Notes: generated by a model not told the origin, from the sequence alone. A stretch of 64,000 nt of DNA from SAR116 cluster bacterium AG-390-L20 (GCA_003278095.1 QCHB01000005.1:43977-107976); one strand, 5' to 3'; counted from the first letter of the stretch, positions 2,416-51,750 are shown. Numbers and translations are program-made.

Positions 2416-3384
2416 ATGAATAAAAATTATTGGGAAGTTCCAGATAATAAATTAGCCTTAGAAATTAAAAATCTTAATAAATTCTATGATGGAGAAACAA
2501 AAAATATTGCATTAAACAATGTATCTCTAAATATTCCAGCTGGAAGTATTTTTGGTCTTTTGGGCCCTAATGGTGCAGGTAAATCAACTCTGATAAATAT
2601 TATTTCTGGAGCGGTAATTAAAAGTTCTGGCAAGGTAATTGTTTGGGGTTATGATATTGATAAAAACAGAAAACAATCAAAACTAGCAATAGGTGTTGTT
2701 CCACAAGAGTTAAATGTTGATGCTTTTTTTACTCCTCAAGAAACTTTAAATTTACATTCTGGAATGTTTAATGTTCCAAAAAAATCTTGGCGGACAGATG
2801 AATTATTAAAGTTAATGGATTTAAGTAATAAAGCTAAGAGTTATAGTCGAACGTTATCTGGTGGAATGAGAAGAAGATTACTAGTGGCTAAAGCAATGGT
2901 ACATTCACCTCCAATTGTTATACTAGACGAGCCTACTGCAGGGGTAGATGTAGAGTTGAGACAAAAATTATGGAAATATTTTAAAAAATTGAATGAACAG
3001 GGTGTTACTATAATATTAACTACGCACTATCTAGAAGAGGCAGAAAATTTGTGTGACCACATAGCTATTATTAGTAAAGGTGAAATTGTTGCAAATGAAA
3101 CTACAAATTCTCTTCTTACAAAATCAAACAAAAAAATTATTAAAATTACATTAAGTGAAAATGAGATTTCGACAAAAGATAAAAATTTTCTTAAAAATAT
3201 TGGACATATAATAATTCATGAAAATAAAGTGCAATTGCACTTTAATCCTAATAAAATATCTACGAAAAAAATTATTGAGACCTTATATAAATCGAAGTTG
3301 AATATAGTAGATTTATCTACGAAAGATGTAAGTCTTGAAGATATTTTCATTGATATAACAAGAGAAAACAATAGTAAAATATAA
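2416..3384 (+). CDS. ABC transporter ATP-binding protein
   Basis: Walker A GPNGAGKST, ABC signature LSGGMRRR, Walker B ILDEPTAGVD. Confidence 0.9.
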   Translation: MNKNYWEVPDNKLALEIKNLNKFYDGETKNIALNNVSLNIPAGSIFGLLGPNGAGKSTLINIISGAVIKSSGKVIVWGYDIDKNRKQSKLAIGVVPQELNVDAFFTPQETLNLHSGMFNVPKKSWRTDELLKLMDLSNKAKSYSRTLSGGMRRRLLVAKAMVHSPPIVILDEPTAGVDVELRQKLWKYFKKLNEQGVTIILTTHYLEEAENLCDHIAIISKGEIVANETTNSLLTKSNKKIIKITLSENEISTKDKNFLKNIGHIIIHENKVQLHFNPNKISTKKIIETLYKSKLNIVDLSTKDVSLEDIFIDITRENNSKI

Positions 3385-3639
3385 ATGATATGGTTTGTTT
3401 ATATGTTAAGATGTAGAGATAATTCAATCTATACTGGCATAACTAATAACTTAGACAAACGAATTGGAGCACATATGTCTGGAAATGGCTCCAAATATGT
3501 TAGAGGAAGATTACCTGTGCAATTGATTTATAAAGAAGATTTTTCAAATAGAAGTAGCGCTAGTAAAAGAGAAATAGAAGTTAAAAAACTAAACAAAAAA
3601 GAAAAAGAATTATTAATAAATTCTGCTAAACAACTTTAA
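3385..3639 (+). CDS. GIY-YIG nuclease superfamily small protein (UPF0213-like)
   Basis: 84 aa; VYMLRC..SIYTGITNNLDKRIGAH and KREIEVKK resemble the GIY-YIG fold; start abuts upstream stop (TAAATG). Confidence 0.75.
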   Translation: MIWFVYMLRCRDNSIYTGITNNLDKRIGAHMSGNGSKYVRGRLPVQLIYKEDFSNRSSASKREIEVKKLNKKEKELLINSAKQL

Positions 3640-5999: not shown

Positions 6000-6194
6000 T
6001 TTATCTCCTATAACTATTTTTAAATATTAAGTAGGAATATACTAATCTAACCAGATATTATCCATAAAGTATTATCCATTTAGTTTATGCATCTAGTAAT
6101 AAAGCAGAGTTATTGTAATCAAAATTATTGGTACATGATTAGTGCTCAACATGTTTATGTAAGTCTATGTAATTCAGAAAGAATGAAGTTATTT

Positions 6195-6980
6195 TTATTT
6201 AAAAATTGCTGAAATGTTTCCAAACAAACTAGAGTTAACCTCTATCAGTTTTTTATCAACTATTGGAATTGGAGGACCATATGCCCCTGTCAAAATAAGA
6301 TCCCCTTTTTTTATTTGATTATTCATCTTAGCTTGTTCAATAACAAACCACTCAACCGCTGATAACATGTCAATAGGCCATATTTTATTTGTCCATTTAT
6401 CTATTATGATTTTATCATAAATCAATTTTAGGTCAGTAATTTCTCCAAATTCTGGTTTGTCTATTCCAAGACCACAAACCACGCCGGCATTTATTGCATT
6501 GTTTGAAATATGTTCTGCACCATAGGGTTTATCACCATAAAATATTAGATTATGTATTTCAATTATTGGGTGAATTGTGTCAATTGAAGCTAATATATAT
6601 TCAAAACTAACTTCTTTAGGATGTAAATCACGATTGAATCTTATACCAAATTCAGCTTCCATTGCTGGATTTGAATAATTTTCTTTATTTAATTTTATTC
6701 CATTTGAATGAAGTTCACTTTCCCATAAACGTCCCCAAGCTGGATAGGAAAAACCGTATTTTTTTTGTGTTTGTTTTGAAATACTACCAATTTTGTAACC
6801 AATTACTTTTTCACCTCTTTTGATTCTGAGATCAGTTAGTATTGATTGAATTTTATAAGCATCTGAGATACTAATCTTGATATTTTTATTTTTAAACAAA
6901 GCACTATGATTTTTCGCATCGTAATCGTTTAAAATTTTCTGGGCATGGCTCTCTAATTTATTTTGAGTTAATTCATTCAT
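6195..6980 (-). CDS. 2-keto-4-pentenoate hydratase / FAH-fold hydratase-decarboxylase family
   Basis: 261 aa; GYKIG motif and overall MhpD/HpcG-like pattern; adjacent to the tautomerase gene. Confidence 0.65.
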   Translation of the reverse strand: MNELTQNKLESHAQKILNDYDAKNHSALFKNKNIKISISDAYKIQSILTDLRIKRGEKVIGYKIGSISKQTQKKYGFSYPAWGRLWESELHSNGIKLNKENYSNPAMEAEFGIRFNRDLHPKEVSFEYILASIDTIHPIIEIHNLIFYGDKPYGAEHISNNAINAGVVCGLGIDKPEFGEITDLKLIYDKIIIDKWTNKIWPIDMLSAVEWFVIEQAKMNNQIKKGDLILTGAYGPPIPIVDKKLIEVNSSLFGNISAIFK

Positions 6981-7247
6981 ATTGTATTTTTATTTAATTA
7001 AATATTGTGCCTAACTCAACATTAAGAGTATTATGAATTTAGTATAGAATAAACGTATATCTCATTAATAAAATAACTAACTTATATGATCAGTTATGTT
7101 ATGATGAGAATTATTTATACCAGAAGAATATATTTTTTAGTTTTCAATAATATAATCCAAAATAGTAATTGCTTTGCTTAAAGCTAATTTAGACATCATT
7201 AAAAAATTTTTAAGGATAAAGTATAGACGTCCAACAAACAAAATATT

Positions 7248-7997
7248 TTATAAATTTTTGATCAATAATGAAAAACCAATAACAATTAAAATCATTAAAA
7301 TAGTTTTTCTAAATATTATGTTAGATAATTTCATCCTAATTTTAGTTCCTAAATACTGTCCTAACAAAGCTGGTGCAGTAATGATCAGACTCACCAACAA
7401 ATCATAAAAGTTACCTAAACCATGAAAAATAAGGGATGAATATAATGGTATAGAAGCTAAGAAATACATTGTTGCTGTAGTTCTTATAAAATTCTCTTTT
7501 GCTAAATTTAATGAGACTAAAAAGGTAATTATAGGCGGTGCGTAGAAGGTAGACACCCCCCCCAGAATACCTGAAAAAAAACCAATAAAGATTGATATTA
7601 TTTTCTCATATTTTGGTTTAAGCCAATTTAGATTTAATCCTAAAAAGTTTAAACCCGTAAAAATAATAATTGTCAACGCAATTATTATTGAAATTGTTTT
7701 CAAATTTAAACTTAATATTAGTTTTCCACCGATAAGTATACCTAAAAAAAGTGTTATAAACATTGGAAAAAACCTATAACTGCTTATTCCTCTTTTGATA
7801 TCCATTTGGATGAAGTTTGTTATAATAACTGGAAAGCATAAAAACATCATTGCTTTAGTAGGTGGCAAAATAAAAGCTATCAATGGAACTGAAAACATAG
7901 ACATTCCAATACCAACCGATCCTTTAACTATTCCTCCAAAAAATACAGAGCACAAAATTACAGAAAAAGTAATAGTTTCAAAATATTCTAAAAACAT
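7248..7997 (-). CDS. TauE/SafE (TSUP) family anion exporter membrane protein
   Basis: 249 aa, about 8 hydrophobic helices, GGIVKGSVGIG and GILGGVS glycine motifs typical of DUF81/TSUP. Confidence 0.75.
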   Translation of the reverse strand: MFLEYFETITFSVILCSVFFGGIVKGSVGIGMSMFSVPLIAFILPPTKAMMFLCFPVIITNFIQMDIKRGISSYRFFPMFITLFLGILIGGKLILSLNLKTISIIIALTIIIFTGLNFLGLNLNWLKPKYEKIISIFIGFFSGILGGVSTFYAPPIITFLVSLNLAKENFIRTTATMYFLASIPLYSSLIFHGLGNFYDLLVSLIITAPALLGQYLGTKIRMKLSNIIFRKTILMILIVIGFSLLIKNL

Positions 7998-8025
7998 ACT
8001 TTTATATTAAGTGGAATGATCACGC

Positions 8026-8037
8026 CTCGTAAAGTGA
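8026..8037. repeat. orphan CCTCGTAAAGTG box (5' box of type-A repeats) at the distal edge of the cassette array
   Basis: cctcgtaaagtg matches the start of A1 (tctcgtaaagtg), A3 (cctcgtaaagta) and A4 (cttcgtgaagtg), but the rest of the repeat is absent. Confidence 0.5.
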
Positions 8038-8073
8038 ATTGAGAAAGACCTTATTTTTATTATTTATTAATTT

Positions 8074-8412
8074 TTAAAAACCAGAGTATTTAACATTTTC
8101 AAAAAGATTAAAATCACTCTGAGTTGACATTCTTCCTTGAGTTTCACCTCCAACTATTGTCATTGTGGCTCCCATTTCTGTGATCTGTTTTTTTAAATCT
8201 GAATATTCACCTGCTTGTTTAAAAGATTTATCCCATTCTTTTTTTGACTTCCAAACAGTTAAAAATTGAAAAGAGATATCTGAAATATCAATAAATAATG
8301 AAAAATTTAAACCATCTTTAAATAAAGAATCTGTATAATTTATACAAAAAAATTTAAAAGAGTCCCTTGAAACCTTGTTTACAAATTTAAAAACATGGGT
8401 TCTCGTATACAT
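8074..8412 (-). CDS. hypothetical small protein, family 2 (paralog of 8752..9075)
   Basis: FLTVWKSKKEWDKSF..ITEMGATMTIVGGET aligns with MFHLWKDKSSLIKTR..IKEMGGIVSKSEGET of the neighbour; possible ABM-like alpha+beta barrel. Confidence 0.5.
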   Translation of the reverse strand: MYTRTHVFKFVNKVSRDSFKFFCINYTDSLFKDGLNFSLFIDISDISFQFLTVWKSKKEWDKSFKQAGEYSDLKKQITEMGATMTIVGGETQGRMSTQSDFNLFENVKYSGF

Positions 8413-8470
8413 ATTTTTTCCTTTTTTCTCATTTTTAATTTTTTAAATATAATTTAATGAAATTAGATTA

Positions 8471-8752
8471 TCAATCTAAACAGTACTTAATTGGTCCCTC
8501 AAATGACCTTATTTTTAAGTTAGTTTTCAATTCATTAATTTCTAGATTATTCATGATTTTTATTCTATCTGTAGATTTCTTATCTTTAAATCTAGCAACA
8601 ACAAACGCTGACATATCATTTACTCTGAAAACTTTTGCAGACTTTTGACCCTATTCAAAATTTTTTGGAAAATGAGTAATTCTTAAATAATCTAAAAAAA
8701 TATTTAATTGAAGTTTAGTTGGAGCTGTTATTTCTACAATTCTAACGTACAT
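8471..8752 (-). pseudogene. small ORF interrupted by an in-frame TAG (8651-8653)
   Basis: My translation: MYVRIVEITAPTKLQLNIFLDYLRITHFPKNFE*GQKSAKVFRVNDMSAFVVARFKDKKSTDRIKIMNNLEINELKTNLKIRSFEGPIKYCLD*. Its ATG overlaps the TGA of the upstream ORF (TGATG at 8750-8754). Confidence 0.45.
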
Positions 8753-9075
8753 CACTTAACCTGTACATTAGCATTATTTATTAGTTTTGACATTTCAACT
8801 ACCGTTTCACCCTCTGATTTACTTACTATTCCTCCCATTTCTTTTATATCATTCCAAAACTTATTGGAAAACTTTGTTCTTGTTTTTATTAAAGATGATT
8901 TATCTTTCCATAAATGAAACATATCTATTTGAGTATCTGATACTTCCGTGAAGCACCTAATTAACAAGCCTCCACTTTCATTAAACAACTCTTCACTCAT
9001 ATTTTTGAGGGACATAACTATAGAATCTTTGGCTAATTTATTTTGTAATTTTACAGTAACTGTTATTCCATACAT
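8752..9075 (-). CDS. hypothetical small protein, family 2
   Basis: 107 aa, paralogous to 8074..8412 (see that entry). Confidence 0.5.
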   Translation of the reverse strand: MYGITVTVKLQNKLAKDSIVMSLKNMSEELFNESGGLLIRCFTEVSDTQIDMFHLWKDKSSLIKTRTKFSNKFWNDIKEMGGIVSKSEGETVVEMSKLINNANVQVK

Positions 9076-9112
9076 ATTTTAAATTCCATAAGCATTTTGA
9101 TACTGACATATT

Positions 9113-9244
9113 TTAATCAAATCGAACATATCTCGTAAAGTGTTAAACATTTTAATGTCTAATATAAAGTCTTTCAGAAAGGCTAATGCAATCGAAGTAA
9201 TAGTTTTAGTTGTTGTCGCTAAGTAAGGCTGTATGAGCCAGGAG
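9113..9244. repeat. type-A structured repeat, copy A1 (most diverged)
   Basis: tctcgtaaagtgttaaacattttaatgtctaatataaagtct...ggctaatgcaatcgaag...aggctgtatgagccagga aligns with A2-A5; abuts the stop of ORF 9245..9583. Confidence 0.7.
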
Positions 9245-9583
9245 TTAGACTCTCAAATCCTGAAGAACAATGTTTCTACTTGCCTCTATAACAGGGTCTG
9301 CGGCTTGAAGTTCTTTCATAATGTTTTTGGTAAAATTTTCTAATTCATTTTGAGATTGTTTAAATGAAGTTGGACTTTCATACTCAAACAAAATAGATAT
9401 TTTAAATGTTCCCTTCATATTCCATATTTGATTAAGACAAAATCTTGTACATCCTTTTTTTTTAAGTTTGTCAAACAATGCTGTACCATTATCTTCCCAA
9501 ATTCTTCTAAAAAGAAGCATTTGCGCTTCTGTCTTGAAAGTAAAAGTATTGTAAGTCATTAAATTTGCTTTTGTATCCAACAT
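9245..9583 (-). CDS. hypothetical small protein, family 1 (WN-x-G...FEY motif), diverged member
   Basis: KKKGCTRFCLNQIWNMKGTFKISILFEYESPTSFKQSQ aligns with the other three members. Confidence 0.55.
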   Translation of the reverse strand: MLDTKANLMTYNTFTFKTEAQMLLFRRIWEDNGTALFDKLKKKGCTRFCLNQIWNMKGTFKISILFEYESPTSFKQSQNELENFTKNIMKELQAADPVIEASRNIVLQDLRV

Positions 9584-9702
9584 AAACTCCTAGTCTGCAA
9601 AAATTTATAATAAATTAAGGTATCAATCAAACCTATCTATGTTAAGTAAAAAGGAACCAAAACTTTAACACTTTGTTTCATCGTTTTGATTAAAGATAAT
9701 AA

Positions 9703-10045
9703 AATTTTATAATTACATTAAGTTAAATTTTAGATTAATGCGATTGAGAAGCAGTTCCATACTCTACTTATGCATCGTGTCCTATCACAATCAAGCTATA
9801 TATTGAGATATGGATACATATGGCATTGTCAATAGGCACCATATGTTTCACACTTTGTTTTACATCTTAATTTAGCGTTCTTAGTATAGAAAAATGGGTC
9901 ACTAAATATGTATAAATATACCTAATTATAATAACACTTCTATGTATCACTTAAGTGTAACACTATAAGTGTAATCCTGCCCCACACGTGTGCCACCCGA
10001 CCCTTGTCGGTATAGTATACATAGGCTTTGCAGCAGATGAAGGTA
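9703..10045. repeat. type-B non-coding module, copy B1 (contains decayed tRNA-Leu 3'-end fragment)
   Basis: 9710-9735 matches 14851-14876 at 25/26. 9862-10040 is roughly 85% identical by eye to 15012-15194. Ends in tatagtatacataggctttgcagcagatgaagg. Confidence 0.75.
9736..9751 (-). repeat. degenerate copy of the tRNA-Leu 3' end
   Basis: taatgcgattgagaag versus tggtgcggctgagaag (12/16), in the same position relative to the conserved flank ttaaattttagat as the exact copy at 14877. Confidence 0.5.
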
Positions 10046-10112
10046 TTTACAATAATTAGACAGTGAAATATTCTACTATTAATCACTTTAACTTTTTAAA
10101 TAGGACACTTTT

Positions 10113-10457
10113 ATGACTTCTTCAAAACTAGTAAATTATACCACAAGAGAATTTATGTCAGACCATGAACTTGAACATTACATAGTTAAACAAAACGAAA
10201 TATTTACACCAAAAGTTGTTGAAGAATTTACGAAAGCTGGAATGTTAAGAAGAGTTTTGACAAAACTTTGGAATAAAGAAGGTGTCCATAGAGTTGGTAT
10301 ATTATTTGAGTATAGAGACGAAAAAGCATATGTTGCATGTCAAAGTCTATTAGAAAAGCATTATATCCCAATGGTAAAAACATTTATTACTAAAGTAATA
10401 GGAAGCCGGGGTATAGTAGTCCATGAATTTAGTTCTGAAGAATTTACGAAGGGATAA
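10113..10457 (+). CDS. hypothetical small protein, family 1 (only plus-strand member)
   Basis: KAGMLRRVLTKLWNKEGVHRVGILFEYRDEKAYVACQ; lies between B1 and A2. Confidence 0.6.
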   Translation: MTSSKLVNYTTREFMSDHELEHYIVKQNEIFTPKVVEEFTKAGMLRRVLTKLWNKEGVHRVGILFEYRDEKAYVACQSLLEKHYIPMVKTFITKVIGSRGIVVHEFSSEEFTKG

Positions 10458-10463
10458 AATAAC

Positions 10464-10580
10464 TAAAGTGTTTACCATTTTAATGACTAATACAGAGTTA
10501 TACAGCAAGGTTAATGTAATCAGATTCAATTAATATCAGCTATAGTTTTAGTGGTTGTGTCAGTCTGAATGAGTCAGGAA
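10464..10580. repeat. type-A structured repeat, copy A2
   Basis: taaagtgtttaccattttaatgactaatacagagtta..cagcaaggttaatgtaatcagattca..cagtctgaatgagtcagga. Arms 10484-10500 and 10561-10576 pair at 12/16. Confidence 0.75.
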
Positions 10581-10594
10581 TTTATAGTCTGATT

Positions 10595-10969
10595 TTATTT
10601 ATTATTTTCATACCACTTATCTAAGTTTATTATTTCATCTTTTGGTTTTAAACTTGACGTAAACCTCTCTACTTCAACAACAAAAAAACTAGCATACTTA
10701 TCTGTTCCCCAACTTTGAACTTGCTTTTCTACATCTTCCTTTGAGTTAGCTAAATAATGAGAACAAAAAAAGGTACTATTGTTTCCAAGCCACGTTTGAG
10801 AGCATGTTGCAAACTCTCCAACTGCATCTTCAGCCCATTTGCCGTGAGTAACACCTTTTGGATACAATTTGTTAAAAGAGGATTTATATTCATCTGACTT
10901 TTTCTCTGACAGAAAGTCATAAATAACAATATAGTTATTCTTTCTATTTTCAGTATTTGTTTTCACCAT
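10595..10969 (-). CDS. hypothetical protein
   Basis: 124-aa ORF between A2 and B2; no motif recognised. Confidence 0.5.
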   Translation of the reverse strand: MVKTNTENRKNNYIVIYDFLSEKKSDEYKSSFNKLYPKGVTHGKWAEDAVGEFATCSQTWLGNNSTFFCSHYLANSKEDVEKQVQSWGTDKYASFFVVEVERFTSSLKPKDEIINLDKWYENNK

Positions 10970-10992
10970 CTACCTATCAATACTTTTGCAAT

Positions 10993-11280
10993 AGCATCAG
11001 TTTATGTGTTCCTAAATCTGTGTCAACAGGCACATAATGGTCTGCCGTTTGGTGTACCCTTAGAAATCTTCTGGTAATGTAAAGAACCTTCAAATTTATA
11101 CACATATAAATATACTCAACTACATACTATCTTCTTCATTAGTCAGTTAATATATTACAATTAATATGTAGTCATTTAGGTGTGCAGTTATATGTATTAT
11201 TTAAGTGACCCTACCCACAGATGGGACATAGGACGGTGTACGTATAGTATACATAGGCTCTGCAACAGATGGAGTGTTAA
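10993..11280. repeat. type-B non-coding module, copy B2 (left end truncated, no tRNA fragment)
   Basis: gcatcagtttatgtgttcctaaatctgtgtcaacaggcacataatggtctgccgtttggtgtaccc and tatagtatacataggctctgcaacagatggagtgttaa match B4; the middle is diverged. Confidence 0.7.
11036..11058. repeat. tandem direct repeat, 12-bp period (aatggtctgcc g tttggtgtacc)
   Basis: Same position within the B module as 14983-15005. Confidence 0.6.
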
Positions 11281-11636
11281 TAATTATAATCTAATAAATT
11301 AAGTGTTCTTGTAGTTAATCTTTTCACAGTGATTTTCTTAAAGAAATTTTCATTCTCTTTAAAATGTTTTTCTATAACTTTTTGTCCCTTAACATAGGCA
11401 TTTTCGTCTTTATATTCAAATAACGTTGACAAAGCAAAACCACCTTCTTTGTTCCATACCTGATTCAATCTAAAGCGCATCAATCCAATTTTTTTCATGC
11501 TTTCATAAAAGTTTGAACCTGTTCTTTCTACATAATTTATAAATAATTCCATTTCGGCTTCACTAGAAAAATCTATTAAAACATGACTAATTAGTTTTGC
11601 TGATGGTATTGAATTTTTATGTTCGTTCATACACAT
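11277..11636 (-). CDS. hypothetical small protein, family 1
   Basis: KKIGLMRFRLNQVWNKEGGFALSTLFEYKDENAYVKGQ; its TAA stop (11277-11279) lies inside the AGTGTTAA box that ends B2. Confidence 0.6.
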   Translation of the reverse strand: MCMNEHKNSIPSAKLISHVLIDFSSEAEMELFINYVERTGSNFYESMKKIGLMRFRLNQVWNKEGGFALSTLFEYKDENAYVKGQKVIEKHFKENENFFKKITVKRLTTRTLNLLDYNY

Positions 11637-11697
11637 AACCTATTTACTAATTTAAAATATTAAAAAATAAAATTATAACTTTGTAGTTACTATATTA

Positions 11698-12000
11698 TTA
11701 TATTCCTTCAACCATAAGTATGTTTGAAGTAGAATTTTCTAATCTTACTTTTTTATAAGGTCTGTATTCTTCACTATCATACCATTTCATAGCTGATTTT
11801 TTGTCAGGAAATTTTACTAATACCATTCTAGTAGGTTTCCATAAATTTGTTTCCAAAGAATCTATCTCTCCACCCCGAATTAAGTATTCACCACCATAGC
11901 TTTCAATCATAGGTTTAACTTTTTCCATATATTTCTGGTATTCTTCTATGTTGTGTATATCCACGTCACCAATCATATAAACTGACATAATCGTCTCCAT
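11698..12000 (-). CDS. DUF1330-like protein
   Basis: SVYMIGDVDIHN..EEYQKYMEKV.P.IESYGGEYLIRGG...MVLVKFPDKKSAMKWYDSEEY matches the DUF1330 pattern as I recall it; the true start may be the ATG at 11985. Confidence 0.65.
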   Translation of the reverse strand: METIMSVYMIGDVDIHNIEEYQKYMEKVKPMIESYGGEYLIRGGEIDSLETNLWKPTRMVLVKFPDKKSAMKWYDSEEYRPYKKVRLENSTSNILMVEGI

Positions 12001-12116
12001 GCTTTCTTTTTCATATTTATATCGCTAATCAAATACCTACAAACAAAATATATAAACTACCAAACAATAAAAAATCAATTATGACAATTTTCATAAAGCT
12101 ATTCATGCTAATAGTT

Positions 12117-12259
12117 TAATCCAAAGAAACACTCCTCGTAAAGTATTAACCAATTTAATGACTAATACAGAGTCATGCAGCAGGGTTAATGTAATCAGAG
12201 TCAAAATGGGTGCATGAGATGTTGTTATAGTGATTGAATGAGTCTGTATGAATCAGGGA
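12117..12259. repeat. type-A structured repeat, copy A3
   Basis: taatccaaagaaacactcctcgtaaagtattaaccaatttaatgactaatacagagtcatgcagcagggttaatgtaatcagagtca...tgagtctgtatgaatcaggga. Arms 12159-12175 and 12239-12255 pair at 14/17. Confidence 0.8.
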
Positions 12260-12357
12260 TGGGTGTGGTAACACTTATATCAAAATTCGTAGAAAGCTAT
12301 TAAATGGAAATCCAACTCTGAGTATTTTATAGGATAGATTACAATTTAAATTTGTAA

Positions 12358-12783
12358 TTATTTGGCGAATACAGTAAGTGGTCCAAGACCTTCAGCTCCA
12401 GCAATTACAGCATACACTATTGTGGGCGTTTTAGCTGTGTTTGTAACAGTGTGAGGTGAATTTGTTGCTTCAACAAACGTATCTCCGGCCTTATAGACTA
12501 CCTTTTTTCCATTAGGACGTTCTGAGGTAACCTCCCCTGACATTATATGCACGATAAGGGGTGCAGGATGAGTATGCTTTGGTAATTTTCCACCCACTGG
12601 AAATATTACCTGAACAATAGTCATTTTTGGAGTACCTTTAGGGTAAGAAATAGCTTCACCTGCACTAGATTTAGAACTTGAATGTAACACTGTTACTTGT
12701 GGTTTTAATTGTTTTGAATTGGCCACATTTGCAAATACTGCTATAGTTAATATAATTATCAATTTTGTAATTAATTTATTCAT
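12358..12783 (-). CDS. secreted cupin-domain protein
   Basis: N-terminal signal-like MNKLITKLIIILTIAVFANVANS; cupin motifs HTHPAPLIVHIMSGEV and GDTFVEATNSPHTVTN. Confidence 0.75.
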   Translation of the reverse strand: MNKLITKLIIILTIAVFANVANSKQLKPQVTVLHSSSKSSAGEAISYPKGTPKMTIVQVIFPVGGKLPKHTHPAPLIVHIMSGEVTSERPNGKKVVYKAGDTFVEATNSPHTVTNTAKTPTIVYAVIAGAEGLGPLTVFAK

Positions 12784-12892
12784 TAGATTTCCCTTTTAAC
12801 TTATTTAAACCAAAAATTTATACTCATTTATAATGATTTGTCTGTAAAGTATTTACATATTTAAAAATATAAGACTGTACAAATAATAAGCA

Positions 12893-12945
12893 TATATGAG
12901 GGTGTAGCTATATATGTATAGTTAGCGTCTGTAGCAGATGGGATT
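12893..12945. repeat. type-B module fragment, copy B3 (3' end only)
   Basis: tatatatgtatagttagcgtctgtagcagatggg aligns with tatatacataggctctgcagcagatgggg of B4. Confidence 0.5.
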
Positions 12946-13006
12946 TTAGAATTGGTATAGTACGTAGATGAATATTATTGTTAGCCCAAGCATAAGTATA
13001 AACTTC

Positions 13007-13360
13007 TTATATACTCCAATCATATTTAAACTCAGAAACCACTATTCCCCTATTATTAAATATTTTGAAAACAAATTTTGCTAAGGTTGGACAATTTTCA
13101 GGTGTGAAAGCAACATTTAAAATATTTTCACATTTTTTAAAAGATGTCTCACTGTCATATTCAAAAACTTGAGTAATTCTATGATGTCCTTTATTCCATA
13201 CTTTAGAAATTACATGACGAATTAAACCATTTTGCTTCAATTGAGAGTAAAGTTTATCTGTCCATATTTCATCAAGAGATTTCAAAAATAAATCTAATTC
13301 ATTTTCAGTTGAAAAATCCATATACAGTGAGTTAAGAAAAGCCGTATCTTTATTTTTCAT
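13007..13360 (-). CDS. hypothetical small protein, family 1
   Basis: KQNGLIRHVISKVWNKGHHRITQVFEYDSETSFKKCE. Confidence 0.6.
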   Translation of the reverse strand: MKNKDTAFLNSLYMDFSTENELDLFLKSLDEIWTDKLYSQLKQNGLIRHVISKVWNKGHHRITQVFEYDSETSFKKCENILNVAFTPENCPTLAKFVFKIFNNRGIVVSEFKYDWSI

Positions 13361-13441
13361 TTATTTCTAAAAACCTTAAAGTTTCATTTTTAAAAAATTA
13401 GTTTTATTTTTTACATATTAATTTTTTATATCTATATATCC

Positions 13442-13581
13442 TAATCCAAACAAACACCCTTCGTGAAGTGTTAACTATTTTAATGACTCTTACAGAGTCA
13501 TATAGCAGGGTTAATGTAATCAGAGTCATTGATATATGAAATATAGTTGAAGTGGCTTTATGAAACTGAGTGAGTCAGGGA
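13442..13581. repeat. type-A structured repeat, copy A4
   Basis: taatccaaacaaacacccttcgtgaagtgttaactattttaatgactcttacagagtcatatagcagggttaatgtaatcagagtca...actgagtgagtcaggga. Contains a perfect 7-bp palindrome, tgactct tac agagtca, at 13484-13500. Confidence 0.8.
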
Positions 13582-13596
13582 TTAATAAAACTATCT

Positions 13597-14742
13597 CTAA
13601 TTAATCTCTTCTACTATTTTAGAAACAACACCTTTTTTGAATAAGTTTCCATATTTATATTTTTCATCAACTGAAAACATAGTTAAGATTGTGTTTTTAG
13701 TAGTATTAATAACATTAAAAAATCCACCATGACCTGTCATAGTTAATGTTGGTACGCCATTTACTTCGTATACCCAAAACTGATATCCGTATCGTACTCC
13801 ATCTCTTTTTGTCTCAACTGCATTTTCAATACCTTCTTTATAAAATTTACCTAAACACGTATTATTAATCATTTCGTCATGTATAAATTGACCAAAGTTT
13901 GACCAATCTAATACACTCATTGTCAACCTAGCTTGGGCAACTGTAATTCCTTTTTTATCTGAAACCCAATGCATGAATTTATTTTGGCTAAATTTTTTAA
14001 AAGCATTTTCATAGAAAATTTGACTTGCTGGTCTGTTTGTTAAATCAGTAATCATAATTGAAAGTGCGAATGGGTCTGATGAAAAATAAAAATGTTTTGA
14101 GCCTTGTTCTCTGTCATTATCCTTTAAAATTGAAATAGCCTTAAACATACTAGCTTTTCCTTCATATTTTCTCAGCCCCATTGCCATTTGGTTCATCTTT
14201 CTTCTTAGCTTATAATCATTTTGTATTGGCGCCACTCCACTATTCATCTGCAGTGTGTTTCTTATAGTTATTTTAGAGTATGGAGTTTGCTTGAGTGAAG
14301 AAGAATATTTACCTAATTCATCATCTAATGATTCAATTTTACCGATGCAAACAAGACTACCAATTGCCGTAGCCAATGCTGTTTTTGCCATAGACATACC
14401 GTGTAATATCGTATTACTATCAATATTTCTTTTTTTATTAAATCTTGCATAAACTAAATCATTATTTTTTCTTATTAACGCAGCTAAATTGTTTTTATCT
14501 TTAAAAATATTGTCATAATTTTCTTTTTTCAAATTGACACTATCAAGATTTTGTTTTTCCCCATAACTATGAATATTTATTTTAAAAGGACCAAACTTTT
14601 TTGTTTCATGAACATTAAAATAGGGCTTTATTTGCCTTTTCCACATTTTTTTAGGCCCATGGTCAGCGTAAGAAATAAAGAAAAATGAAAAATAAATTGT
14701 TATAGATAAAAATAACTTGAACATAAATAGCCTCAAATACAA
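13597..14742 (-). CDS. serine hydrolase, beta-lactamase/transpeptidase-like family, membrane-anchored or secreted
   Basis: 381 aa; hydrophobic N-terminus; S-x-x-K motif SMAK in GMSMAKTALATAIG. Confidence 0.7.
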   Translation of the reverse strand: MYLRLFMFKLFLSITIYFSFFFISYADHGPKKMWKRQIKPYFNVHETKKFGPFKINIHSYGEKQNLDSVNLKKENYDNIFKDKNNLAALIRKNNDLVYARFNKKRNIDSNTILHGMSMAKTALATAIGSLVCIGKIESLDDELGKYSSSLKQTPYSKITIRNTLQMNSGVAPIQNDYKLRRKMNQMAMGLRKYEGKASMFKAISILKDNDREQGSKHFYFSSDPFALSIMITDLTNRPASQIFYENAFKKFSQNKFMHWVSDKKGITVAQARLTMSVLDWSNFGQFIHDEMINNTCLGKFYKEGIENAVETKRDGVRYGYQFWVYEVNGVPTLTMTGHGGFFNVINTTKNTILTMFSVDEKYKYGNLFKKGVVSKIVEEIN

Positions 14743-14876
14743 TTAATTAATATGTTAATAATAAACATATTAATTAATTTTAAAACAAAAAAATAAGCAC
14801 CAAATTTTTCAATCTATTTCACAGTGTTAATTTAAAAAAATAAAATTTAATAATTACAGTAAGTTAAATTTTAGAT

Positions 14877-14893
14877 TGGTGCGGCTGAGAAGA
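14877..14893 (-). repeat. exact 17-bp duplicate of the tRNA-Leu(GAG) 3' end (candidate att core)
   Basis: tggtgcggctgagaaga is identical to 16101-16117 (3' strand of the T stem, acceptor 3' strand and ACCA). Confidence 0.85.
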
Positions 14894-14982
14894 TTTAAGT
14901 TAATCTAAGATGCACCACTTGAGGTTGTATACAAGCTCTATGCTCAGTTTATGTATTACCGAATCCGTGTCAACAGGCACAT

Positions 14983-15005
14983 TTTGGTCTACCGTTTGGT
15001 CTACC
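14983..15005. repeat. tandem direct repeat TTTGGTCTACC g TTTGGTCTACC
   Basis: Perfect 11-mer twice with a 12-bp period, about 90 bp from the 14877 core copy. Confidence 0.8.
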
Positions 15006-15201
15006 CTAAATGTTACATCTTAATTTAGCGTTCTTAGTATAGAGAACATAGAAATGGATATGTGTAAATATACCTAAACTATAATAACATTTATATGTAT
15101 CATTTAAGTGTAACACTATAAGTGTAATCCTACCCCACAAGTGAGCCACCCCACCCTTGTACGGATATATACATAGGCTCTGCAGCAGATGGGGTATAAA
15201 T

Positions 15202-15316
15202 AGTGTTAACCATTTTAATGTGTCATAGAGGTTCAAGCAGTAGGGTCTATTTAATCAGAGCCAATGGTACATTGGATGTGTTTATAGTAGTTGTTTGAGT
15301 CTATGTGAATTAAAGA
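15202..15316. repeat. type-A structured repeat, copy A5 (fused to B4)
   Basis: agtgttaaccattttaatgtgtcatagaggttcaagcagtagggtctatttaatcagagcca...tgagtctatgtgaatta. The stem cataga/tctatg shows two compensatory changes relative to tacaga/tctgta of A3. Confidence 0.7.
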
Positions 15317-15507
15317 TGGAGAGTTAAAGTTTACTACCACTAACTTTTATTAATTAATTTAATTTGTTTTTCATTCATATTTTTTAACTGATTTGGTAAA
15401 GTTATTTCATCAGTCCATAAAAGCTTAATATTCAAGCCAACATTAACATATTATAATGATACGTAATCTAGGCTTCTTATAAATATTCAACCTATAAATA
15501 TTAAACC

Positions 15508-15864
15508 TTAAGCATTAACCTTCTTTTTAGATTTCCAAATTAAAAAAACTAGAGATAAAACTTGAGCTGCAAGTAAAAACCACACAAGTCCTGCTATTGA
15601 ATTTTCATCTGCATTTTCAGCACTTGCTGCAACCCATAAAAGAGGAGAAAGGAAAAACAAGCTTAAAAAATTGACTCCAATTGCTATATACCCTAAAAGC
15701 GCACTTTTTCCATAAGATAATGCAGCAAGAATTGCAGAAACTACAGTAAGGTAAACACCGATAACTGGAATAAAAATGGATATCCCGGCTAGAACAATAG
15801 ATAATATACCCATTACTTTACCACGAGAACCTTCTTGTGAAACAACTTCATTAGATTCATTCAT
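15508..15864 (-). CDS. hypothetical small membrane protein
   Basis: 118 aa, 3-4 predicted hydrophobic helices, lysine-rich C-terminus; only ORF inside the mini-element. Confidence 0.55.
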   Translation of the reverse strand: MNESNEVVSQEGSRGKVMGILSIVLAGISIFIPVIGVYLTVVSAILAALSYGKSALLGYIAIGVNFLSLFFLSPLLWVAASAENADENSIAGLVWFLLAAQVLSLVFLIWKSKKKVNA

Positions 15865-16012
15865 AATTTTTTCCTTTAGTTCAATTATAAAATTAAATAA
15901 TTAATTTACATAAAAATAAGTCTATTTAAATGTACTTAAAAAATTTAAATAGTCAATTTTTAAAATTAAAAGTAATTTTATAATCAAATATGGAATGTGA
16001 AGGGAACATTTA

Positions 16013-16035
16013 AATGGTCTACTATTTGGTCTACC
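16013..16035. repeat. tandem direct repeat aatggtctact a tttggtctacc
   Basis: Same motif, orientation and 12-bp period as 14983-15005; lies 65 bp from the tRNA 3' end. Confidence 0.75.
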
Positions 16036-16100
16036 CTCCAAGGACACATTACAAAATATGCTTACACATCAACTACTTAGGATGACTGAATCACTTGAAA

Positions 16101-16187
16101 TGGTGCGGCTGAGAAGACTCGAACTTCCACGGGTTTTACCCCACAGCGACCTCAACGCTGCGCGTCTACCAGTTCCGCCACAGCCGC
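16101..16187 (-). tRNA. tRNA-Leu (anticodon GAG), CCA encoded
   Basis: Reverse complement is GCGGCTGTGGCGGAACTGGTAGACGCGCAGCGTTGAGGTCGCTGTGGGGTAAAACCCGTGGAAGTTCGAGTCTTCTCAGCCGCACCA. Features: 7-bp acceptor stem, anticodon loop TTGAGGT, long variable arm. Confidence 0.9.
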
Positions 16188-16277
16188 ATATAAAAAGTCA
16201 TGTTTGCGATAACAAAACAATTTGTATAATGCAAGTTAAATAATATATTAGCAAATGATAGGATTAGGGTTATTAAA

Positions 16278-16928
16278 TTGACACAGACTGTTGAATGGAA
16301 AATATCGAATAAGTTGATAAATTATGATTTTGCCATCTCAGTAATGGAAAAAAGAGTTTTAAATATAAAAAGAAACTCTGAGAAAGAATTAGTTTGGCTT
16401 TTAGAACATGAGTCTATCTACACAGCAGGAACATCTGCAAAAGATAACGATCTGATAAATAATAGAGTAGAAATTCGTCGTACTGGAAGAGGAGGACAAT
16501 GGACATGGCACGGTCCAGGTCAGAGAGTAGTATACTTGATGCTTAATCTTAAAAATAGAATACAAGACGTAAAAGCATATGTACATGCTCTTGAAGAATT
16601 AGTTATCTTATCATTAAGTGATTTCGATATCTATGGAGTAAGAATAAAAAATCAGCCAGGTGTCTGGGTAAATACAAACAACAGATTTGATAAAATTGCT
16701 GCTTTAGGCATTCGAATTTCTAGTTGGATCACTTATCATGGCATATCTATAAATCTAAATCCTAATCTAGAGGAATTTAAAAACATTGTACCATGTGGAA
16801 TTAAAGATAGTGGGATAACTAGCCTACATAAATTAAATAAGAATGTTTCATTTGACGAATTAGATAATAGTTTAAAAAAATATTTTGAAAAAATTTTTGG
16901 TGAAAATGGTTCATTTTTTATAAAGTAA
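16278..16928 (+). CDS. lipB: lipoyl(octanoyl) transferase
   Basis: RTGRGGQWTWHGPGQRVVY and ALGIR...HGISINL motifs; TTG start. Confidence 0.85.
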   Translation: MTQTVEWKISNKLINYDFAISVMEKRVLNIKRNSEKELVWLLEHESIYTAGTSAKDNDLINNRVEIRRTGRGGQWTWHGPGQRVVYLMLNLKNRIQDVKAYVHALEELVILSLSDFDIYGVRIKNQPGVWVNTNNRFDKIAALGIRISSWITYHGISINLNPNLEEFKNIVPCGIKDSGITSLHKLNKNVSFDELDNSLKKYFEKIFGENGSFFIK

Positions 16929-34316: not shown

Positions 34317-34321
34317 TAAAT

Positions 34322-35572
34322 CCTCACTACATTAACTATTAAATGTTATCAGTTAAGACTGAATACTCGAAACAACCCCAGCACCAACTGTTCTTCCACC
34401 TTCTCTTATTGCAAATCTTAAACCTTCATCCATTGCAATTGGTGCAATTAACTCAACAGTTATTGCTATATTATCCCCAGGCATAACCATTTCTGTTCCT
34501 GATGGAAGCTCTACAGCCCCAGTTACGTCAGTAGTTCTAAAATAAAATTGTGGACGATAATTACTAAAAAAAGGTGTATGCCTTCCACCTTCATCTTTAG
34601 TTAATATGTAAGCCTCGCCTTTAAATTTTGAATATGGCTTGATTGAACCAGGTGCAGATAAAACTTGACCTCGTTCGACTTCTTCTCTTTTTGTACCTCT
34701 TAAAAGAACACCAACATTATCACCAGCTTCACCAGAATCTAATAACTTACGAAACATTTCAACACCAGTACATGTTGTCTTAGTTGTTTCCTTTATGCCA
34801 ACAATCTCTATTTCTTCACCAACTTTCACAACACCTCTTTCCACACGACCCGTAACAACAGTTCCTCTTCCAGATATAGAAAAAACGTCTTCAATAGGCA
34901 TTAAAAAAGGCTTATCTTTGTCACGAGCTGGTTGAGGAATATAAGTATCAACAGCAGTCATTAATTCTGTAATCGAATTCAGACCAATAGCTTCATCACG
35001 ATTCTCTAAAGCCGCTAGTGCACTTCCTTTTATAATAGGAATGTCGTCACCAGGAAAATCATAACTACTTAAGAGTTCACGAATTTCTAATTCCACTAAT
35101 TCTAATAATTCTTCATCATCAACTTGATCGACTTTATTCATATAAACTACTAATGAGGGAACACCTACCTGACGCGCTAAAAGTATATGCTCTTTAGTTT
35201 GAGGCATAGGACCATCCGCAGCATTCACAACTAAAATAGCGCCATCCATTTGAGCCGCGCCGGTGATCATGTTCTTGACATAGTCAGCGTGACCTGGACA
35301 GTCAACATGAGCATAATGACGATTTTCAGTAGAATATTCAACATGAGCAGTAGATATAGTTATACCTCTCTCTCTTTCTTCAGGCGCTTTATCAATTTGG
35401 TCATAAGCAGAAAAGTCAGCACGACCAGCATCAGCCATAACTTTTGTAATTGCTGCAGTTAAAGTAGTTTTCCCATGATCAACGTGGCCTATTGTGCCAA
35501 TGTTAACGTGTGGTTTACTACGATCAAATTTTTCTTTAGACATCTTATATGACCTTTCTGTATATAATTGTT
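34322..35572. repeat. 1251-bp repeat, copy 1 (tuf plus 31 bp 3' flank and 29 bp 5' flank)
   Basis: Matches 50500..51750 at a constant offset of 16178. Both-strand ORF translations are identical and every stretch I compared base by base is identical. Confidence 0.85.
34353..35543 (-). CDS. tuf: elongation factor Tu (copy 1, str-operon copy)
   Basis: [22 protein letters not shown] motifs; 396 aa. Confidence 0.97.
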
Positions 35573-50482: not shown

Positions 50483-50499
50483 TTATTTAAATAATAAAC

Positions 50500-51750
50500 C
50501 CTCACTACATTAACTATTAAATGTTATCAGTTAAGACTGAATACTCGAAACAACCCCAGCACCAACTGTTCTTCCACCTTCTCTTATTGCAAATCTTAAA
50601 CCTTCATCCATTGCAATTGGTGCAATTAACTCAACAGTTATTGCTATATTATCCCCAGGCATAACCATTTCTGTTCCTGATGGAAGCTCTACAGCCCCAG
50701 TTACGTCAGTAGTTCTAAAATAAAATTGTGGACGATAATTACTAAAAAAAGGTGTATGCCTTCCACCTTCATCTTTAGTTAATATGTAAGCCTCGCCTTT
50801 AAATTTTGAATATGGCTTGATTGAACCAGGTGCAGATAAAACTTGACCTCGTTCGACTTCTTCTCTTTTTGTACCTCTTAAAAGAACACCAACATTATCA
50901 CCAGCTTCACCAGAATCTAATAACTTACGAAACATTTCAACACCAGTACATGTTGTCTTAGTTGTTTCCTTTATGCCAACAATCTCTATTTCTTCACCAA
51001 CTTTCACAACACCTCTTTCCACACGACCCGTAACAACAGTTCCTCTTCCAGATATAGAAAAAACGTCTTCAATAGGCATTAAAAAAGGCTTATCTTTGTC
51101 ACGAGCTGGTTGAGGAATATAAGTATCAACAGCAGTCATTAATTCTGTAATCGAATTCAGACCAATAGCTTCATCACGATTCTCTAAAGCCGCTAGTGCA
51201 CTTCCTTTTATAATAGGAATGTCGTCACCAGGAAAATCATAACTACTTAAGAGTTCACGAATTTCTAATTCCACTAATTCTAATAATTCTTCATCATCAA
51301 CTTGATCGACTTTATTCATATAAACTACTAATGAGGGAACACCTACCTGACGCGCTAAAAGTATATGCTCTTTAGTTTGAGGCATAGGACCATCCGCAGC
51401 ATTCACAACTAAAATAGCGCCATCCATTTGAGCCGCGCCGGTGATCATGTTCTTGACATAGTCAGCGTGACCTGGACAGTCAACATGAGCATAATGACGA
51501 TTTTCAGTAGAATATTCAACATGAGCAGTAGATATAGTTATACCTCTCTCTCTTTCTTCAGGCGCTTTATCAATTTGGTCATAAGCAGAAAAGTCAGCAC
51601 GACCAGCATCAGCCATAACTTTTGTAATTGCTGCAGTTAAAGTAGTTTTCCCATGATCAACGTGGCCTATTGTGCCAATGTTAACGTGTGGTTTACTACG
51701 ATCAAATTTTTCTTTAGACATCTTATATGACCTTTCTGTATATAATTGTT
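50500..51750. repeat. 1251-bp repeat, copy 2
   Basis: See copy 1 at 34322..35572. Confidence 0.85.
50531..51721 (-). CDS. tuf: elongation factor Tu (copy 2)
   Basis: Protein identical to copy 1. The ORF-track start at 51841 runs through tRNA-Tyr and is rejected; the true start is [10 protein letters not shown] at 51721. Confidence 0.97.

Follow-up and report, generated by a model that had tools for sequence, protein, structure and literature searches.

A palindromic repeat family at the joints of gene cassettes in tRNA-linked islands of SAR116 bacteria

Introduction

Streamlined ocean bacteria such as SAR116, SAR11 and OM43 carry very few classical mobile elements, and how they gain and swap their flexible genes is an open question. 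A 64,000-nucleotide stretch of DNA from the SAR116 cluster bacterium AG-390-L20 (GCA_003278095.1, QCHB01000005.1:43977-107976; the whole stretch is called the window below) gives this question a particular form, since it holds a repeat of about 115 nt, here named A, that recurs in one orientation between small genes. What is this repeat, and does it take part in moving the genes that it separates? A first-pass annotation made from the sequence alone had listed five copies, compared their architecture with integron attC sites or other hairpin recombination sites, and read compensatory changes in one stem as a sign that the fold is selected. The analysis reported here shows A to be a real repeat family, found in the tRNA islands of SAR116, whose copies mark the joints between cassettes. 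The array resembles an integron in layout without being one, and its exchange may proceed by a site-specific or a homologous route.

Results

The repeat family

Profile searches with nhmmer, using profiles built from five and later from 57 copies, found six copies of A in the window, all on the plus strand and within 6.0-15.3 kb, and none in the remaining ~54 kb (Table 1). The five copies listed in the first-pass annotation were recovered on one strand at approximately their listed positions, with E-values of 5e-21 to 9e-37, and its description of the box layout, the intergenic placement, the contact between A1 and a stop codon and the perfect palindrome TGACTCT-TAC-AGAGTCA within A4 was correct throughout. 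The complementarity that it had described between the 5' and 3' arms was also found, 14-19 of 22 positions being pairable in the window copies. The palindrome TGACTC-N5-GAGTCA occurs six times in the window against 1.3 expected, and the 3' box of A three times against an expectation of zero.

Approximately 110 copies distributed across 61 related loci (cited by number below) define a consensus of ~115 nt that reads, from left to right, TTAACCATTTTAA / TGACTCATACAGAGTCATACAGC / AGGGTTAATGTAATCAGAGTCAATGGTGCATGAGATGTGGTTATAGTG / GCTGTATGAGTCTGTATGAGTCA / GGGATT. The first element is the left box and GGGATT the right end; TGACTCATACAGAGTCATACAGC and GCTGTATGAGTCTGTATGAGTCA are 23-nt inverted arms, each with its own TGACTC-N5-GAGTCA palindrome, so that the two palindromes are subterminal, lying 14 nt and 6 nt from the ends of the repeat. 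The centre, CAGCAGGGTTAATGTAATCAGAGTC, is almost invariant, and sequence conservation amounts to ~77 per cent with the loop included.

A strict version of the A pattern matched ten stretches among species-representative genomes, mostly single-cell genomes and metagenome-assembled genomes (MAGs) of SAR116 and including one in the closed genome of Ca. Levibacter (Puniceispirillales), as well as 41 marine metagenome contigs; it matched no viral contig. Two of the ten, both on short contigs, come from MAGs labelled Pelagibacterales and Flavobacteriales and are taken to be mis-binned, and a stretch in a Spirosomataceae MAG was dismissed as a chance match. Every genome matched yielded a single stretch of DNA, the complete Levibacter genome included, a result to be read within the limits of so strict a pattern. 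Because the window is ~90 per cent identical to the SAR116 single-cell genomes AAA536-G10 and AG-337-N21, and because of the genomes that the A pattern found, the host is identified as a low-GC SAR116 bacterium (Puniceispirillales) and not SAR11; the SAR11-like attribution of the first-pass annotation had to be given up.

Several other origins for A were considered and rejected. The SAR11_0636 motif of Pelagibacter has similar GAGTC/GAATCA boxes and is found at the edge of a variable region (PMC2704228), but neither nhmmer nor blastn gave a match between it and A. A short peptide encoded in A is contradicted by indels of 1-5 nt that break the frame (57-copy alignment, judged by eye), and a Xer/dif-like core by the agreement of at most 6 of 11 XerD half-site positions and the lack of a XerC arm (also by eye). 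A phage or plasmid origin was dropped as well, only tRNA matches being obtained and no copies in viral contigs. Neither A repeats nor SAR116 islands were found described in the searchable literature, and A is a previously undescribed repeat family.

Cassette joints and their shuffling

The position of A relative to genes is regular. Its right end (GAGTCAGGGATT) meets the stop of an inward-reading gene in 35 of 51 evaluable copies (69 per cent), at a median distance of 11 nt, and a gene also ends at the left side in 22 of the 51, so that A often lies between convergent genes. Orientation is uniform in 22 of 26 loci with multiple copies. The left flank falls into three classes, namely a conserved leader (TAATCCAAACAAACACCCCTCGTAAAGTG), the D4 end of a second repeat family named B, and a gene stop, all of which converge at ...A(A/T)AGTG^TTAACC (here and below ^ marks the joint). 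On the minus strand the leader reads TTTACG-18 nt-TAnnnT, and one copy was flagged in a promoter scan; it is promoter-like and may be the promoter of the next gene.

The joint is sharp even where A is missing. The leader of the TauE gene is followed by A in L043, L055 and L012, by the tail of another cassette in the window and in L011, and by unrelated DNA in L020, and further joints to non-A sequence occur after TTAACCAA and after TTAACCC in L001/L002 and L012. Four independent joints of this kind fall within 9 nt. Locus L016 lacks exactly the segment at 8037-9142 of the window, which is a two-gene f1 cassette with its leader.

Across A, the same genes meet many different neighbours. Among 68 copies there are 53 distinct left-right gene combinations: on the left, the beta-lactamase-family unit is found with four different neighbours and the cupin unit with three, the plus-strand DUF6974 gene has eight different right neighbours, and the B/D4 end is followed by A and 14 different genes. 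The same cassettes, at 89-96 per cent nucleotide identity, are found in islands at tRNA-Leu, tRNA-Gly(tcc) and tRNA-Arg. Chimeric copies of A are present among the loci, as is a fusion of A with an integrase gene; in a chimera in L004 the left part matches A3 and the right part A4, with the switch inside TTTAATGACT. The first-pass proposal that the repeats lie at the joints of a cassette-like array is supported by this variety of neighbours, and the copies are clustered in islands, with none of the scatter through core intergenic regions that the annotation had named as the mark of a generic REP-like (repetitive extragenic palindromic) element.

Table 1. Features of the cassette array in the window. 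ORF, open reading frame; cells are empty where no value is given.
Feature	Coordinates	Strand	Remarks
A0	6059..6180	+	degenerate sixth copy, absent from the first-pass list; nhmmer E = 1.3e-15, covariance model 73 bits; right end 15 nt from stop of ORF 6195-6980 (-)
A1	9127..9248	+	diverged copy; nhmmer, covariance model; right end overlaps stop codon of DUF6974 gene 9245-9583 (-)
A2	10460..10585	+	nhmmer, covariance model; flanked by convergent genes, DUF6974 10113-10457 (+) and ORF 10595-10969 (-)
A3	12129..12264	+	nhmmer, covariance model; after cupin gene 12358-12783 (-), before leader of DUF1330 11698-12000 (-)
A4	13454..13586	+	nhmmer, covariance model; 15 nt past stop of beta-lactamase-family gene 13597-14742 (-)
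A5	15194..15320	+	nhmmer; fused directly to D4 end of B4
Leader (i), TAATCCAAACAAACACCCTTCGTGAAGTG	13437..13470	-	ends at AAGTG^TTAAC joint
Further leader (i) copies	8003-8036, 9109-9142, 12112-12145
Joint without an A copy	8025..8037	+	TauE leader ...CCTCGTAAAGTG joined at 8036^8037 to tail of next cassette
B1	9648-10057		second repeat family
B2	10997-11289		second repeat family
B3	12917-12958		second repeat family
B4	14789..15209	+	ends in D4 box ...GCAGCAGATGGGGTATAAATAGTG^TTAACC; GGTAGACCA pair at 14985-15005
Direct repeat of tRNA-Leu 3' end	14877..14894	+	17/18 nt; 2 matches, 0 expected
Tyrosine integrase remnant	16001..16100	-	upstream region and first 8 codons, ATG -> ATA, rest of gene gone
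tRNA-Leu(gag)	16101..16187	-	integration target, bounding the island
Cargo genes of the array	6195..15864	-	261-aa ORF, TauE, two f1 ORFs, four DUF6974 (one of them on +); also 124-aa ORF, DUF1330, cupin, beta-lactamase-family gene, 118-aa membrane ORF
Four diverged DUF6974 paralogues	9245-9583, 10113-10457, 11277-11636, 13007-13360	-, +, -, -

The fold of A

As single-stranded DNA the consensus A folds into a near-perfect 23-bp stem at -22.8 kcal/mol (z = -6.2), the opposite strand reaching -17.9 kcal/mol (z = -4.8). Across the family the stem has a median of 19 of 22 pairs, with a median z of about -2 to -2.6. Among the window copies, folding exceeds that of shuffled sequence in A5 (z = -4.6) and A4 (z = -1.9) alone, A5 being the sole copy with a clearly non-random fold; A0-A3 do no better than their shuffles.

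Covariation in the stem is weak, and selection on the fold is not demonstrable from these alignments. RNAalifold returned no consensus pairs for 57 copies, in which 83.8 per cent of the cells of the 22-pair stem pair versus 82.8 per cent in shuffles, with 17 double changes versus 11.3. When 105 copies were aligned to a covariance model, 80.2 per cent of cells paired versus 78.2 per cent in shuffles, and the 58 double changes exceeded the shuffled mean of 35.4, with none of 500 shuffles as high, although this alignment was fitted to the structure and its counts lean towards it. In the same alignment ~420 unpaired cells outnumber the compensated ones about 7 to 1, and the central region and loops of A are conserved as well as the arms. 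The plus strand pairs slightly better through G-T/G-U pairs (83.8 versus 77.5 per cent pairable; minimum free energy -29 versus -17 kcal/mol), much of which advantage is base composition.

The argument from A5 for a selected fold, in which cataga/tctatg was said to replace tacaga/tctgta by two compensatory changes, does not stand. The pairing in A5 sits in a register slid by 2 nt, a slide permitted by the repetitive CATACAG motif; copies with a G in the column of A5's 5' change mostly lack the matching 3' change; and the family pairs barely more than shuffles, with far more broken than compensated pairs. In Rfam only tRNAs reach the gathering score, and nothing relevant was found in 8000-16500 at E-values up to 10.

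The tRNA-linked island

The array abuts a tRNA-Leu gene that, together with the repeat of its 3' end and the integrase remnant beside it, had escaped the first-pass annotation. The repeat at 14877-14894 is the scar of an attachment site, left where an element had integrated at the tRNA. It delimits the newest element, the 1.2 kb from 14895 to 16100, which contains A5. The remnant is of the DUF6538/Phage_integrase type and carries a GGTAGACCA pair at 16015-16035; no integrase ORF was found in the window by tblastn. An intact DUF6538 and Phage_integrase gene lies beside the same tRNA-Leu in L004, and others are present in L007 and L041 and beside tRNA-Gly genes in L062-L065, whereas L001 has a pseudogene and L003 a fusion of the integrase with the right half of A. 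From the tRNA-Leu 3'-end repeat and the remnant of an integrase that is intact in related loci, the locus is identified as an additive island built by integration at tRNA genes.

Integrases of this kind are 83-100 per cent identical at four tRNA genes, Leu(gag), Gly(tcc), Gly(gcc) and Arg(tcg), and the tRNA/integrase sites lie at 15022-15095 in L001, 15831-15907 in L003 and about 9851-9925 in L062-L065. One island segment, located between ferrochelatase and EamA, is shared by L001 and L002 but faces opposite ways in the two. On either side of the intact gene stand inverted copies of its upstream region, ~65-90 nt in length and including a few tRNA-end bases (8-96 and 1217-1308 in L007; 9945-10021 and 11146-11209 in L062), and many metagenome contigs with this integrase are just 1.25-1.5 kb long, as if assembly broke at the bracketing repeats. 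The arrangement suggests that the integrase is an invertible or separately mobile module. A derivation of A from the 5' coding region of the integrase was also considered, but the hidden Markov model matches behind it (E ~1e-3) vanish without the fusion copy of L003 and are an artefact. By eye, the left box of A bears a short resemblance to the GGTAGACCA motif.

The B repeat is modular and alternates with A. It holds a piece of the tRNA-Leu 3' end, paired GGTAGACCA motifs and several CAC...GTG palindromes, and a promoter-like site conserved in B (TTGACA-16-TAAACT) lies in B4 at 14973-14946 on the minus strand. In L002 and L062 copies of B flank whole islands in inverted orientation, and B also stands directly before or after the integrase gene.

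Cargo and neighbouring genes

Among the cargo families near A, DUF6974 predominates by a wide margin, with 44 ORFs in the 61 loci. Its fold is dimeric ferredoxin-like and matches PDB 2op5 and 2od6, both annotated as hypothetical proteins. A protein of 463-494 aa also recurs in A arrays (L002 15073-16464, L050 1861-3345, L020 5869-7167, L057 3398-4789); it has an ...ILTIHDSFVVP... motif, strongly matches PHROG 4756, a family of unknown function, and matches nothing in Pfam, NCBIfam or PDB. It could serve these elements in replication or mobility.

On the far side of the array, a short ORF with a GIY-YIG nuclease domain (3385-3639 in the window) follows an ABC ATPase gene (2416-3384), and the same pair forms the left border of A arrays in L012, L016 and L043. 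Elsewhere in the window a perfect 300-nt direct repeat occurs at 34317-34616 and 50495-50794, 16 kb apart, the second copy adjoining tRNA-Trp; it presumably represents two tuf (EF-Tu) genes.

Discussion

The reading favoured here, given about an even chance, is that small gene cassettes end in A, which serves as their boundary and recombination module. In low-GC SAR116 bacteria such cassettes would accumulate in an additive island that a tRNA-targeting tyrosine integrase has built. Read on the minus strand, each unit would begin with a promoter-like leader, or with the longer B in its place, and continue through one or a few ORFs to A, present as reverse complement right after the stop; the left edge of A, ...GTAAAGTG^TTAACCA..., would be the narrow joint between units. 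The arms and the centre CAGCAGGGTTAATGTAATCAGAGTC would be the protein-binding or hairpin-forming body of a recombination site that serves cassette gain, loss and exchange. Under this reading recombination at A itself presumably does the shuffling, either by a site-specific route (through the DUF6538 integrase or another enzyme) or by a RecA-dependent one between repeats. A0 and A1, the copies farthest from the tRNA, are the most degenerate, and metagenomic copies stay near the perfect-stem consensus. A therefore fits a site needed for mobility and not for gene expression, and it is mainly because of this decay gradient that recombination is ranked first.

Several observations weigh against recombination at A. 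The interior of A is no more alike between loci with one flank in common (similarity 0.70-0.79) than between random copies (0.74-0.79). A change-point analysis did not return a single fixed crossover point, and the apparent crossovers scatter among the left box, the vicinity of position 60 and that of positions 93-104; homologous exchange or gene conversion therefore explains them better than one fixed crossover point would, and no less well than a classical site-specific reaction. For its own site the integrase uses the tRNA 3' end and its GGTAGACCA arm pairs, and A lacks the latter. The island of L065 has the same integrase family and no A at all, only duplications of DUF6974 and of integrase fragments, and neither circular cassettes nor excision products were seen. 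A promoter-like -35 element overlaps the left half-site and could by itself explain why that half-site is conserved, and the related loci were fetched by a sequence pattern, which biases the data set towards conserved copies.

A more specific form of this reading is held only tentatively and is, on balance, doubtful. It would make the locus an integron-independent cassette system in which promoter-bearing cassettes, each finishing in the hairpin-capable ~115-nt A, undergo site-specific insertion and exchange at GTAAAGTG^TTAACCA, preferably beside an integrase-proximal B/D4 arm with an attI-like role, by means of the DUF6538 integrase or another partner. If true, the integron principle would have been invented a second time, by convergence, in a heterotroph clade that is among the most abundant in the ocean.

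What else could keep such a repeat at the ends of genes? It is unlikely, if still worth weighing, that the reverse complement of A is a hairpin terminator, an insulator or an mRNA-stabilising 3' element that is carried along by cassettes and forms a terminator-promoter module with the leader. The frequent contact of the right end with stop codons, the genes that also end at the left, the leader directly downstream of A on the minus strand and the long stem of the family would all suit such a role. However, the stem is not followed by a U-tract, a terminator scan misses the A stems, and pairing is better on the plus strand, antisense to the adjacent genes; the loops are conserved like the stems, covariation is weak, and A0-A3 fold no better than shuffles though their genes are intact. 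A selfish non-autonomous element, whether a REPIN (REP doublet forming a hairpin), a miniature inverted-repeat transposable element (MITE) or an IS200/IS605 derivative, that an unseen transposase moves in trans and that targets joints would reduce the role at joints to a by-product. Its probability is judged to be low, even though two similar subterminal palindromes that form a long hairpin, many copies near one consensus in varied contexts, and an interior unlinked to either flank are what such an element would produce. Insertion as an independent element was rejected, as no empty site exists among the locus pairs in which both flanks are conserved: A is there in every one of them. Target-site duplications are not apparent, the inverted repeats are subterminal, the copies are island-clustered in a single orientation and not dispersed, and a search of the window and the 61 loci by tblastn and motif scan, which is a weak test, brought up no HUH/Y1 transposase.

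The structured non-coding RNA with a selected fold to which the covariation argument of the first-pass annotation would lead is improbable. The excess of double changes over shuffles and the G-U pairs that favour the plus strand speak for it, but the former comes from the alignment that was fitted to the structure, and the absence of RNAalifold consensus pairs, pairing only 1-2 points above shuffles, the preponderance of unpaired over compensated cells and the lack of an Rfam match all point the other way, as does the absence of a promoter or terminator framing A on the plus strand. Least probable is an ordinary integron attC site whose IntI is encoded elsewhere in the genome, as in clusters of attC sites lacking integron integrases (CALIN). 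Repeats of 115-135 nt with imperfect dyad symmetry, in one orientation and each after a small ORF, do recall attC, and the GTTAAC box resembles GTTRRRY. Yet there is only one such box, 14 nt outside the stem and without a RYYYAAC partner at the other end, and in the 57-copy alignment no complementary partner lies beyond the right-end GGGATT. Cassettes stand in both orientations with promoter-like leaders of their own, and the DUF6538 integrase, the only recombinase of the loci, reaches no dedicated IntI model and scores 20-26 bits against the NCBIfam cut-offs of 220-335 for the XerA/integron-integrase and XerC/D models. The likeness to an attC or hairpin recombination site drawn in the first-pass annotation is thus kept for the layout at cassette joints, and its own remarks that the sites are non-canonical and that intI is missing proved accurate, while the proof from compensatory changes is lost.

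If recombination at the ends of cassettes is accepted as the working reading, the locus exemplifies a repeatable architecture, a tRNA-linked integrase island split into promoter-gene-repeat cassettes that would recombine combinatorially at one conserved repeat, with the same cassettes at three different tRNA sites. Should recombination at A prove site-specific, this would be an integron-like cassette system built from different parts. With purely homologous exchange, A would still be a marker by which to find and delimit cassettes in SAR116 metagenomes. Experiments are within reach, since the clade has a cultured member with a closed genome, Ca. Levibacter (PMC12421898).

Three known kinds of system invite comparison. 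REPIN and bacterial interspersed mosaic elements (BIME), enterobacterial repetitive intergenic consensus (ERIC) sequences and Correia repeats share with A a length of 100-150 nt, a long imperfect hairpin and a place at gene 3' ends and between convergent genes. They occur all over the genome in either orientation, with target duplications or presence/absence polymorphism, whereas A is clustered and uniform in orientation, and no empty site was found. The closest framework is provided by additive islands and tycheposon-like elements at the tRNA genes of marine and freshwater oligotrophs (PMC10872708), with which the locus shares tRNA abutment, a tRNA 3' end repeated in direct orientation, an intact or remnant tyrosine recombinase, variable cargo gained in tandem and a streamlined planktonic host. 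Those islands are described as punctuated by partial-tRNA repeats (PMC10872708); A, unlike these, is a separate ~115-nt palindromic repeat at cassette joints, which the literature searched does not describe there.

The third comparison is with the closest analogue, the attC repeats of sedentary chromosomal integrons such as the Vibrio superintegron, known as Vibrio cholerae repeats (VCR), and with CALIN arrays. In contrast to these, the A array has no IntI and no paired R''/R' core sites, its joint lies outside the hairpin, and it combines both cassette orientations, promoter-like leaders, alternating B repeats and a tRNA-integrating tyrosine integrase. The two share repeats of ~120 nt with imperfect dyad symmetry, high mutual similarity and one orientation per cluster, a small and often uncharacterised ORF before each repeat, cassettes with varied neighbours, and a cargo of small alpha+beta, cupin and similar proteins. 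A can thus be regarded as an analogue of the Vibrio VCR/attC repeats, set in an array that is not an integron.

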